From NCBI GenBank assembly GCA_951406725.2, contig OX597816.1:117552001-117616000 (forward strand): 64,000 nt of DNA. Reading direction: 5' to 3'. Position numbers and translations under genes: made by a program. Source of the DNA: Octopus vulgaris. Its lineage: Eukaryota. Positions 40,584 through 43,511 of the stretch are shown piece after piece. Within the stretch, counting starts at the first letter, position 1; each line of letters begins with the position of its first letter. The notes under the pieces are model-generated. The model was not told where the DNA came from. It saw only the letters and a program-made list of their open reading frames with translations, and did no database searches.

Positions 40584-40833
40584 ATATATATATATGTATG
40601 TATTTGTATATATATATATATATAAAATGTGAAATAGAAAGATGAATAATCTTGTTGCAGATTAATCAAAAGTTTAACCGATACCTTGGTAGCAAAAATC
40701 ACAGCAGAAGACAGCACGGTTGGAGGTACAACCATATGGTGTTGCAACCGTGCGTTCGTGCGGATAATTGAATTTTAATATTATTAGTGAATTGAAGAAA
40801 TGGAGTTGAACGAAGATTGAACAGAAATCGTTT

Positions 40834-40926
40834 TATTTCATTCTACACGTGTTTCGAAAGGCACAATTTACCAAATTCCGATTGAATAATGAGACCATAT
40901 TGTGTCTTTCTCTTCAGGAAGAAATA
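40834..40926 (-). ncRNA. Type I hammerhead ribozyme (mirror copy)
   Basis: Reverse complement of 41241-41333. Confidence 0.85.
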
Positions 40927-41240
40927 GGAAATCCGTTGGAAAAAACAAAAACAGAACAGAGGCGGAGCAAAACAAATCGAACTAGGCTCCTAAGAGCCCA
41001 TGGCCAAACTGTTTATCAGTGTATGTTGAAAACGGGTGGTGGGTGCGTTGAAGATTTTAACGGGTCAGGCAGCGGTCATTCCGGTGGGTGACCGCTGCCT
41101 GACCCGTTAAAATCTTCAACGCACCCACCACCCGTTTTCAACATACACTGATAAACAGTTTGGCCATGGGCTCTTAGGAGCCTAGTTCGATTTGTTTTGC
41201 TCCGCCTCTGTTCTGTTTTTGTTTTTTCCAACGGATTTCC

Positions 41241-41333
41241 TATTTCTTCCTGAAGAGAAAGACACAATATGGTCTCATTATTCAATCGGAATTTGGTAAA
41301 TTGTGCCTTTCGAAACACGTGTAGAATGAAATA
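41241..41333 (+). ncRNA. Type I hammerhead ribozyme (PLE-associated)
   Basis: Stem I 5' tatttcttc, core CTGAAGA (41250-41256), stem II gaaagacacaat/attgtgcctttc, GAAA (41312-41315), palindromic stem III ACACGTGT, cleavage triplet GTA (cut after 41323), stem I 3' gaatgaaata. Confidence 0.85.
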
Positions 41334-41376
41334 AAACGATTTCTGTTCAATCTTCGTTCAACTCCATTTCTTCAAT

Positions 41377-41450
<74 letters not shown>

Positions 41451-41891
41451 GTAATATGTATATATTTATATATATACACATTTAAATTATATATATATAT
41501 ATACACATTTATCAATTTGTGTTGCAAAATTCCTGATGTGAAATCGTGTGTTGAAACAGATATTGTTGTATTTCAGGACGGTCATTTTTTTGCCAAATAA
41601 ACACACGCACTATATATTTTTCTTCACTCGTTTATTAGTTTTTATGTTATTATTCTAACTCATGTCCATTGTCCGGAAATCTTTCGTCACACATCTGTGA
41701 CGAAATATATATATATGTGTGTATATATATGTGAGTGTATATATATATATATATATATATGTGTATATATATGTATATATATGTGTATATATATGTATAT
41801 ATATGTGTATATGTATGCATATATATATGTATATATATATAAATATATATATATATATAAGTTTGAATTGTTCTTTTTGAACTTATTTTTC

Positions 41892-41956
<65 letters not shown>

Positions 41957-42003
41957 GTGAATTGAAGAAATGGAGCTGAACGAAGATTGAACAGAAATCG
42001 TTT

Positions 42004-42096
42004 TATTTCATTCTACACGTGTTTCGAAAGGCACAATTTACCAAAATCCGATTGAATAATGAGACCATATTGTGTCTTTCTCTTCAGGAAGAAATA
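42004..42096 (-). ncRNA. Type I hammerhead ribozyme in the 3' pseudo-LTR, sense to the GIY-YIG ORF
   Basis: Same core CTGAAGA...GAAACACGTGTA; one substitution in the stem II loop. Confidence 0.85.
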
Positions 42097-42698
42097 GGAA
42101 ATCCGTTGGAAAAAACAAAAACAGAACAGAGGCGGAGCAAAACAAATCGAACTAGGCTCCTAAGAGCCCATGGCAAAACTGTTTATCAGTGTATGTTGAG
42201 AACCGGTGGCTGAAGATTTTAACGGGTCAGGCAGCGATCAATCATGTGGGTGAGGGTGTGTAGATGTTCTTTGTGACCGAGAATAAAGTTCTGACTATTT
42301 AAGGAATATTGGATGTTTTATAAGGGGCGAGAAAAAATCTACTTAGAGACATGTGTGTGTATACTGTTCTATATATGTGTGTGCTGGCGTAGGGGTAGAA
42401 AACATTTTTTTGTGTACGTGTGTGCGTTTGATCGCTCGGCTGTCAGTGGCTAAGCCGCTCTCCACAATGGCTACTGCAGTAAGAACCGTTGGGTGGCAGA
42501 AAAAAATATATATTATGTTTTATGTGTGTGTGTGTTCGTCTGAGCCTGCCTTGTCAAGGTAACCCCCCGTTGTCAAAAAACCAAGCCCCGTTTATCTTAC
42601 AGGAGTAATTCCCCTTGCAGTGGTTAATCGTAAATATCTTAAAGGCTATTTCAGAATTTGTTACCAAGGGCTATGGGTGCCGGTATTATTTATAAACG

Positions 42699-43139
42699 CT
42701 ATTTAAAAGCCAGATAAGTGTAACGCCGCCAATGGGGGCATCGAAAAGCCGACTGTAAAAGTCCGTTTACCATCCGGCCTCTGGCAAACAAAATATGGAA
42801 GAGTTCGGAGACACAAAGGTTGCACTGCCTTCTGCCCCTATCAAATGGGAGGGCCACCGACAAAATTGACCATTCCAGCCTGTAGCTTGAGTTCGTATCC
42901 TTCAGTCGCCATATTAGCTTGCTGAGTCCCGTGGTCTGGCGCTTGTTCATGTCCCGAAAAGTTGCGTAATGGTTGGAGACTCGCAAAGCCAATCTTGACG
43001 ATGAGGCCCCTACATAAGTGAAGACATCTGAGTCCGTGTAAACCTTGCATTGGTAGACGGCGTTTTTGATCTTGGAGTTCGCCGACGTGAATCTTATTCT
43101 GCTAGGATTAGTTTCTGAAATTAGAACTGCGTTCCTGTC
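42699..43139 (-). CDS. GIY-YIG endonuclease domain (C-terminus of a PLE polyprotein), 5'-truncated
   Basis: The open frame extends upstream of the track ORF: DRNAVLISETNPSRIRFTSANSKIKNAVYQCKVYTDSDVFTYVGASSSRLALRVSNHYATF...LSKLIWRLK...EWSIL...CNLCVSE...CPHWRRYTYLAFK*. Shows AVY/YVG, R..H and CxxC..E motifs. Confidence 0.85.
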   Translation of the reverse strand, partial: DRNAVLISETNPSRIRFTSANSKIKNAVYQCKVYTDSDVFTYVGASSSRLALRVSNHYATFRDMNKRQTTGLSKLIWRLKDTNSSYRLEWSILSVALPFDRGRRQCNLCVSELFHILFARGRMVNGLLQSAFRCPHWRRYTYLAFK

Positions 43140-43140
43140 C

Positions 43141-43233
43141 TATTTCTTCCTGAAGAGAAAGACACATTATGGTCTCATTATTCAATCGGATTTTGGTAAA
43201 TTGTGCCTTTCGAAACACGTGTAGAATGAAATA
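43141..43233 (+). ncRNA. Type I hammerhead ribozyme in the inverted pseudo-LTR
   Basis: tatttcttcCTGAAGAgaaagacacatt...attgtgcctttcGAAACACGTGTAgaatgaaata. Confidence 0.85.
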
Positions 43234-43439
43234 AAACGATTTCTGTTCAATCTTCGTTCAGCTCCATTTCTTCAATTCACCAATAATATTTTAATTTCAA
43301 TTATCCGCACCAACGCACGGTTGCAACACCATATGGTTGTACCTCCATCCGTGCTGTTTTCTGCTGTGATTTTTGCTACCAAGGTATCGGTTAAACTTTT
43401 GATTAATCTGCTACAAGATTATTCATCTTTCTATTTCAC

Positions 43440-43511
<72 letters not shown>

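Follow-up and report, generated by a model that had tools for sequence, protein, structure and literature searches.

The hammerhead-bearing locus described here lies in the window, that is, the whole stretch of 64,000 nucleotides of Octopus vulgaris DNA that was analysed, and probably consists of two separate 5′-truncated insertions of a young Hydra-related Penelope-like element (PLE), each likely dual-primed at two fixed start sites. A more specific version is put forward only tentatively, in which each cut strand has its own start site, both copies derive from one RNA (plausibly a hammerhead-processed circle), the end motif marks the starts, and no linker zinc finger is involved. In the proposed mechanism, the reverse transcriptase (RT)-endonuclease (EN) would act as a dimer nicking both strands of the (TA)n target, and one priming event would proceed from each cut strand, using two fixed start sites that lie about 159 nt from each other in the element RNA. 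Both cDNAs would be copied from the same RNA or donor and then joined at short microhomology, and tandem arrays would arise by running round a circular monomer or by template jumping. The hammerheads would be carried along with the pseudo-LTRs as passengers; any activity of theirs would take the form of a palindrome-linked dimer in head-to-tail tandem transcripts of full-length copies. The locus itself is most likely inert debris.

The features of the locus are listed in Table 1. (TA)n adjoins all four element ends, and the two neighbouring insertions inside (TA)n reported by the earlier note were recovered with TA flanks where it had placed them. Its 294-bp perfect palindrome holds for the arms (40785-41078 and 41089-41382), which are perfect inverted repeats, but not as a spacer-free whole insertion, since a 10-nt spacer separates the arms and they form only part of insertion 1. 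The arms of this insertion meet over about 3 nt of microhomology (TGA, by eye). The 5′-truncated GIY-YIG ORF of insertion 2 was likewise found, as an RT-less frame carrying the motifs YQC..YVG, CxxC, E, N, and CxH, with an upstream linker lacking the CxCX5C cysteines. The arms in the window, with 10-39 differences each, are those of a slightly older subfamily. Part of the stretch is held by 20 of the 24 public runs listed, with five organism codes at a share of at least 0.40.

Table 1. Features of the hammerhead-bearing locus (positions in the window).
Feature	Position	Strand	Detail
(TA)n-rich target flank left of insertion 1	40520..40626	.	sequence
Insertion 1 long arm, 5′-truncated pseudo-LTR, long (L) end	40627..41091	-	element positions 3117-3584
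Tail of ~158 bp within insertion 1 long arm	about 40627-40784		
Hammerhead 1	40835..40926	-	CTGA at 40917, predicted cut after 40844
Insertion 1 short arm, inverted pseudo-LTR, short (S) end	41089..41380	+	
Hammerhead 2	41241..41332	+	CTGA at 41250, predicted cut after 41323
TA-rich host spacer separating insertions 1 and 2	41381..41953	.	sequence
Insertion 2 main body, 5′-truncated, short (S) end	41954..43143	-	element positions 2243-3417
Hammerhead 3	42005..42096	-	CTGA at 42087, predicted cut after 42014
C-terminal GIY-YIG endonuclease fragment, 146 aa, without RT	42699..43139	-	
Insertion 2 inverted pseudo-LTR, long (L) end, with tail	43138..43445	+	
Hammerhead 4	43141..43232	+	CTGA at 43150, predicted cut after 43223
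(TA)n target flank right of insertion 2	43446..43540	.	sequence

A descriptor scan for type I hammerheads on both strands of the whole window returned four matches and no others, exactly the cores named previously, and predicted the same cut after 41323. Stem III is ACACGTGT in all four hammerheads; stem II comprises 12 positions forming 11 pairs with one A-C mismatch, so that the reported 12-bp stem II stands in length and not in full pairing, and loop II comprises 31 nt. The hammerhead at 43150 has a second stem II mismatch. Same-sense cut-to-cut distances are 1,900 and 1,170 nt, in agreement with the two same-sense cores per strand that had been placed ~1.9 and ~1.2 kb apart. A search of Rfam, the check that had been suggested, returned 41 matches at E ≤ 5 with no hammerhead family among them, and the hammerhead call therefore relies on the descriptor scan and on the usual core numbering. 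The numbering and the layout of type I were compared with PMC4209133. Elsewhere in the window, two exact 25-nt tandem copies (44263-44312) have a middle part resembling the start of hammerhead stem II; the repeat at 44263 was rejected as a ribozyme given its unsupportive context and is probably due to chance or to another family.

The core stretch is widespread in the genome: its 26 nt have 1,823 exact matches and the reversed control has none, and thus the core is not a chance occurrence. All 150 scored matches of the EN fragment, taken from 17,267 first-look candidates that include other families, are stop-free and 97-100% identical, in accordance with the young Penelope-like family with hammerhead-bearing pseudo-LTRs that had been claimed, and the anticipated RT-containing master copy was found in 17 of these best 150 matches as open RT-endonuclease frames of 899 or 905 aa. 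The unit is 3,624 bp long and encodes an 895-aa protein with RT and C-terminal GIY-YIG domains, and in tandems the ATG lies 341 nt after the hammerhead core. A 35-nt junction reading out of the tail in the direction of the ORF start has 26 exact matches in the genome, so that at least this number of copies has a complete 5′ end. Partial tandems forming pseudo-LTRs, inverted 5′-truncated copies, and an optional tail are all present in the family. Because the arms derive from a 3.6-kb coding unit, of which they are truncated ends, a non-LTR retrozyme with a small non-coding tandem unit was rejected. The positional sample referred to below was drawn from contig C1: the first 100 of the 1,823 core matches fall within its first 145 Mb, and every one of the 70 loci that they represent was included. 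L002, L021, and L104 were left out of end counts for overlaps, and one 73%-identical arm in L048 was dropped. In this sample, arm divergence from the column majority has a median of 1.6%, and 62/109 arms lie within 2%. The family may be uncatalogued, as had been suggested, but this holds against Craig et al. (2021) alone; a 2026 octopus repeat annotation gives 190 Penelope-like families, 31 of them recently active. Four loci on contig C16 at 20.5-20.8 Mb (L005, L006, L012, and L013) have a common 5′ truncation at element position 868 and are probably local duplications of one insertion.

Signs of expression come from three sequencing runs guessed to be RNA. Contigs of 1,555 and 1,358 nt cross the 5′ half of the ORF and the whole unit is covered by contigs in two of the three runs, which weakly suggests that the family is expressed but gives no such indication for this locus. 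No splice-like joint was seen in the low-complexity linker or the 5′ UTR in the contigs of these runs, which are presence-only data. An ADAR-type A-to-G skew was not seen in the fetched copies, three arms passing a loose filter with small and mixed counts.

The 895-aa protein has 104 homologues at 29-42% identity, the only species-named one being from Argonauta. Its predicted structure (pLDDT 75.8) has telomerase RTs as the top five PDB fold matches (E 5e-9 to 4e-8), the RT catalytic motif YRDD is present, and an alignment with the homologues alone, inspected for an insertion-in-fingers domain (lacking in the Hydra clade), shows no extra segment between RT motifs A and B. The putative GIY-YIG endonuclease domain (residues ~775-890), assigned at motif level only, has the pattern YQC..YVG..R..H..E..N, which aligns with the EN of 15/16 homologues in the layout of the Fig. 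S7 text. Searches by profile and structure were negative: apart from two chance-level matches, Pfam gave none for the EN fragment, the full ORF, or alignment A1, the PDB sequence search gave 0 matches, the viral fold library returned generic polymerase palm matches only, and a single-sequence model of the EN fragment was unusable (pLDDT 37). Comparisons with published elements, here and below, refer to the available text of the papers cited. With the Hydra clade (Craig et al., 2021; PMC8557442), which includes Hydra-1_Obim, the element shares a single ORF with RT and C-terminal GIY-YIG, the DKT variant of the DKG motif (residue 122), RxRW (RIRW at residue 35, followed by L rather than the K of the RWK motif), absence of the internal CCHH, CxxC and CxH around E and N (CNLC at 855, CPH at 883), a type I hammerhead that lies about 100-200 nt from the 3′ end and has a short palindromic stem III, and (TA)n insertion. 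By contrast, the CxCX5C linker retains only one cysteine, the ORF is brought to 895 aa and the unit to 3.6 kb (Hydra elements being generally <3 kb) by two inserts predicted to be disordered (residues 486-559 and 632-762), and stem II and its loop measure 11 bp and 31 nt against 3-7 bp and 3-10 nt in File S2 of that paper. By eye, the element is unlike Hydra-1_Obim in sequence and differs from it in the hammerhead and the N-terminus; its best database homologues are 29-42% identical. Going by motif layout, the element is an EN+ PLE with Hydra-like workings and a probable origin in that clade. The C-terminal position of EN led to the rejection of Naiad/Chlamys, in which an N-terminal EN is joined to RT by a CxC linker. 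A second young Hydra-like family (L105-L124, e.g., L114, G000:C2:201956561-201959953) has 41% RT identity to the present one, retains a CxC..C linker, and has a microsatellite-like 3′ UTR over 1.4 kb that is common to its copies.

The association with (TA)n is strict. At least four TA repeats occur within 22 nt of 117/119 3′ ends in the positional sample, the remaining two beginning with three, against a background of 4.7% in the window and 6.9% in distal flanks, and the (TA)n targeting that had been asserted is thus upheld. In the EN-ranked set, in which one locus is counted twice and the four C16 loci look like one duplicated insertion, TA is found at 48/49 3′ ends. Because TA also adjoins the 5′ side of 9/18 single-piece insertions, the repeat is for the most part a target that was already present. 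The linker zinc finger has been proposed to mediate the microsatellite insertion bias (Craig et al., 2021). The CxCX5C linker is present in 73/75 EN-bearing homologues and absent in 62/62 EN frames of this family (a few truncated or fetched twice), and strict TA insertion without the linker cysteines argues that the linker zinc finger is dispensable for TA targeting. Nothing further was found in the literature on microsatellite targeting versus the linker zinc finger.

It is possible, if on the unlikely side, that the hammerheads are non-functional hitch-hikers that look intact only through the youth of the family. With a median arm divergence of 1.6%, intact cores are expected, and core conservation is largely explained by youth alone; the family is too young to show ribozyme covariation. 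Moreover, 5′ ends do not pile up at the predicted cut, and the cut was rejected as a template 5′ boundary, only 1/20 ends in element positions 3300-3420 lying within 3 nt of it. In the anole element, ribozyme mutants were without effect on insertion (Frangieh et al., 2024; PMC11167929), and in the second Hydra-like family no CTGANGA occurs within 1,100 nt after the stop in 20/20 loci, a span that does not reach the 3′ end. On the other side, core bases, the conservation of which across genomic copies had been set beforehand as a test, are retained in 142-145 of 145 complete copies, the 3′ half being the selection pattern for most loci, and in 59/59 copies from loci chosen without a ribozyme pattern. 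None of the common subfamily variants touches the core; those of stem II are confined to its outermost pair, and the others lie in loop II or distal stem I; canonical cores also persist in Hydra families of several phyla (PMC8557442 File S2). The dropped arm (L048:238-536) is a 73%-identical pseudo-LTR relative that still ends at the L position before TA, and as an older subfamily it might show covariation.

Dual priming is suggested by the 3′ ends, which fall into two classes, S about 135 nt and L about 293 nt past the hammerhead core; S ends scatter over ~12 nt, and the two sites lie ~159 nt apart. The positional sample holds 61 L and 58 S ends, and its inverted pairs consist of one L and one S in 46/47 cases (p = 3e-13 against 0.5). 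The exception (L075, S+S) is a three-piece insertion that also has an L end. In a second set, including both insertions in the window, 16/16 pairs are L + S. Both ends, 159 nt apart around a hairpin, carry the motif TTCWATT(T)CAC..ATAAT, which is absent from the rest of the unit; since these two ends supplied the pattern, it is a description, not a test. The tail folds into a hairpin with z -2.4, against +0.7 for an upstream control. Two insertions counted as unpaired (L040 and L073) have in the 5′ flank, by eye, a short inverted remnant of the opposite end type, giving one S and one L.

The 5′ ends of the arms bear on a self-priming alternative, in which copying of a single folded-back cDNA gives an intermediate that the endonuclease then cuts at S, leaving the tail one-sided. 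Self-priming is the mechanism put forward for the Penelope elements of Adineta (Arkhipova et al., 2013; PMC3846280), and the tail has been attributed to EN-mediated resolution (Craig et al., 2021). Among 47 simple pairs (L019, L018, and L032 were dropped because an arm enters a further unit), 11 have 5′ ends within 25 nt of each other, compared with 3.0 by permutation (p = 5e-5); these, insertion 1 included, fit fold-back, as do the perfect arms of insertion 1 and the microhomology of about 3 nt at its joint. However, the S arm extends >25 nt further 5′ than the L arm in 26/47 pairs, and in eight of these 26, which are the only such cases in the 47, the L arm consists of tail only; the L arm is longer in 10/47. 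In such pairs neither arm could by fold-back have served as template for the other, barring the later deletion of a longer intermediate, and insertions that are unpaired likewise end at S (11) or at L (15). Self-priming is therefore considered rather improbable, and dual priming is likely because many pairs cannot arise by fold-back of one cDNA. A shared template is suggested by the excess of coincident 5′ ends (11 against 3.0) and by the closeness of paired arms, which differ by a median of 0.6% within a pair and of 2.0% across loci, the value within the pair being lower in 41/46 rows; the similarity of the arms could stem from gene conversion or from an already homogeneous donor.

Dual priming has precedents in Poseidon of Anolis carolinensis (PAc), the protein of which cuts and extends both strands, is a predicted dimer, and starts reverse transcription at two internal sites bounding the tail (Frangieh et al., 2024). 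The in vitro RT start site is the same whether the strand is top or bottom in that study, and thus no strand-to-site assignment is made here. A one-sided tail of 30-40 bp has already been described as "often" present or "optional" (PMC8557442 fig. 2 legend; PMC3846280). A literature search on twin priming in Penelope-like elements found nothing beyond the papers cited here. PAc and the octopus element both have two fixed 3′ ends with an optional tail between them, AT-rich targets, a hammerhead in the pseudo-LTR, and no sign of a ribozyme cut setting the template ends. Here the tail is ~159 nt long instead of 30-40 and is located upstream of the ATG, not within the ORF, and the one-long-one-short rule is quantified in genomic copies. 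The Adineta vaga Penelope elements (Arkhipova et al., 2013) have head-to-head inverted pseudo-LTRs with a tail on one and long low-complexity in-frame inserts between RT and EN, as does the octopus family; low copy number and self-priming are described there, whereas about 1,800 core copies exist here and most arm geometries are unfit for self-priming.

Excision of RNA at this locus by a hammerhead dimer was evaluated by equilibrium minimum-free-energy folding, which is without kinetics or proteins. In the predicted fold of a locus transcript from either strand, 92-93 of 93 nt per ribozyme pair with an antisense copy, and whichever the strand, transcription reaches an antisense copy ahead of every ribozyme; forcing a same-sense dimer costs 249 kcal/mol (+) and 244 kcal/mol (-). 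The hammerheads at the locus are thus predicted to be buried in long double-stranded RNA, which is the likelier product of a locus transcript in view of this antisense pairing and dimer cost. For two ribozyme RNAs in isolation, association through the palindrome is predicted (-44.5 versus 2 × -15.2 kcal/mol), the active fold lying 2.3 kcal/mol above the minimum for the isolated ribozyme and 3.6 kcal/mol above it for the dimer. The cores are intact, the same-sense pairs lie at the distances stated, the isolated RNAs are predicted to associate, and dimeric cleavage, low in vitro, has been described for PLE hammerheads (Cervera and de la Pena, 2014; PMC4209133), but given the predicted pairing of all four ribozymes with antisense copies transcribed ahead of them and the energy of the forced dimer, the read-through model of the earlier note, with a 1.9-kb (+) or 1.2-kb (-) RNA released by a same-sense dimer, is very improbable and was rejected on folding energy.

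The hammerheads resemble the minimal PLE hammerheads of Cervera and de la Pena (2014) in being type I with a long helix II and a palindromic helix III, in their expected dimer action, and in the circular-monomer model for tandems; helix II and loop II are longer here. The hammerhead copies are near-invariant in this family, which the available text of that paper reports only for the actively invading Penelope of D. virilis. The tandem arrays of the family comprise closely related units. In 8/8 overlaps of ≥500 nt (6 arrays), units differ less within the array than from the closest other locus, for example, by 1 of 3,557 positions against a median of 33; seven overlaps under 500 nt are mixed, three being lower within the array and four equal or higher. 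Near-identical tandem units fit a circular monomer, as in PMC4209133, or template jumping, and the similarity could also come from gene conversion or a homogeneous donor. One array (L020, L021, and L104; G000:C1:119.514-119.527 Mb) has ~3.5 head-to-tail units that are 99.9-100% identical and all carry a private amino-acid variant, KNPAF for KTNAF. Dimeric PLE hammerheads were reportedly also treated by Lunse and coworkers in 2017.

Both how PLEs build tandem and inverted insertions and what directs their choice of microsatellites are named as open by Craig et al. (2021). The same paper reports hammerheads and TA targeting from nearly the whole Hydra clade, and these headline features are therefore already expected for the group; the additions made here are the long tail, TA targeting by a family that lacks the linker cysteines, and the two-end rule in quantified form. 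The family is young and numerous and has intact full-length copies, so that its footprints can be counted, and the one-long-one-short rule together with the tail-only arms favors dual priming over self-priming. At 159 nt apart, compared with the usual 30-40, the S and L start sites should be easy to separate in vitro. If start sites are indeed specific to each strand, the family would offer a ready system for the study of inverted-copy and tail formation and of microsatellite choice.

Other features of the window lie outside the two insertions. A further inverted repeat of ~179 bp (88%), unrelated in sequence, lies between TA runs to the right of insertion 2 (43656-44020). An acidic, low-complexity open frame of 1,296 codons (60001-63891, +) is likely a large host exon. 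Decayed frames at 18096-19612 (-) and about 44740-45260 appear from their motifs to resemble Tc1/mariner transposases.
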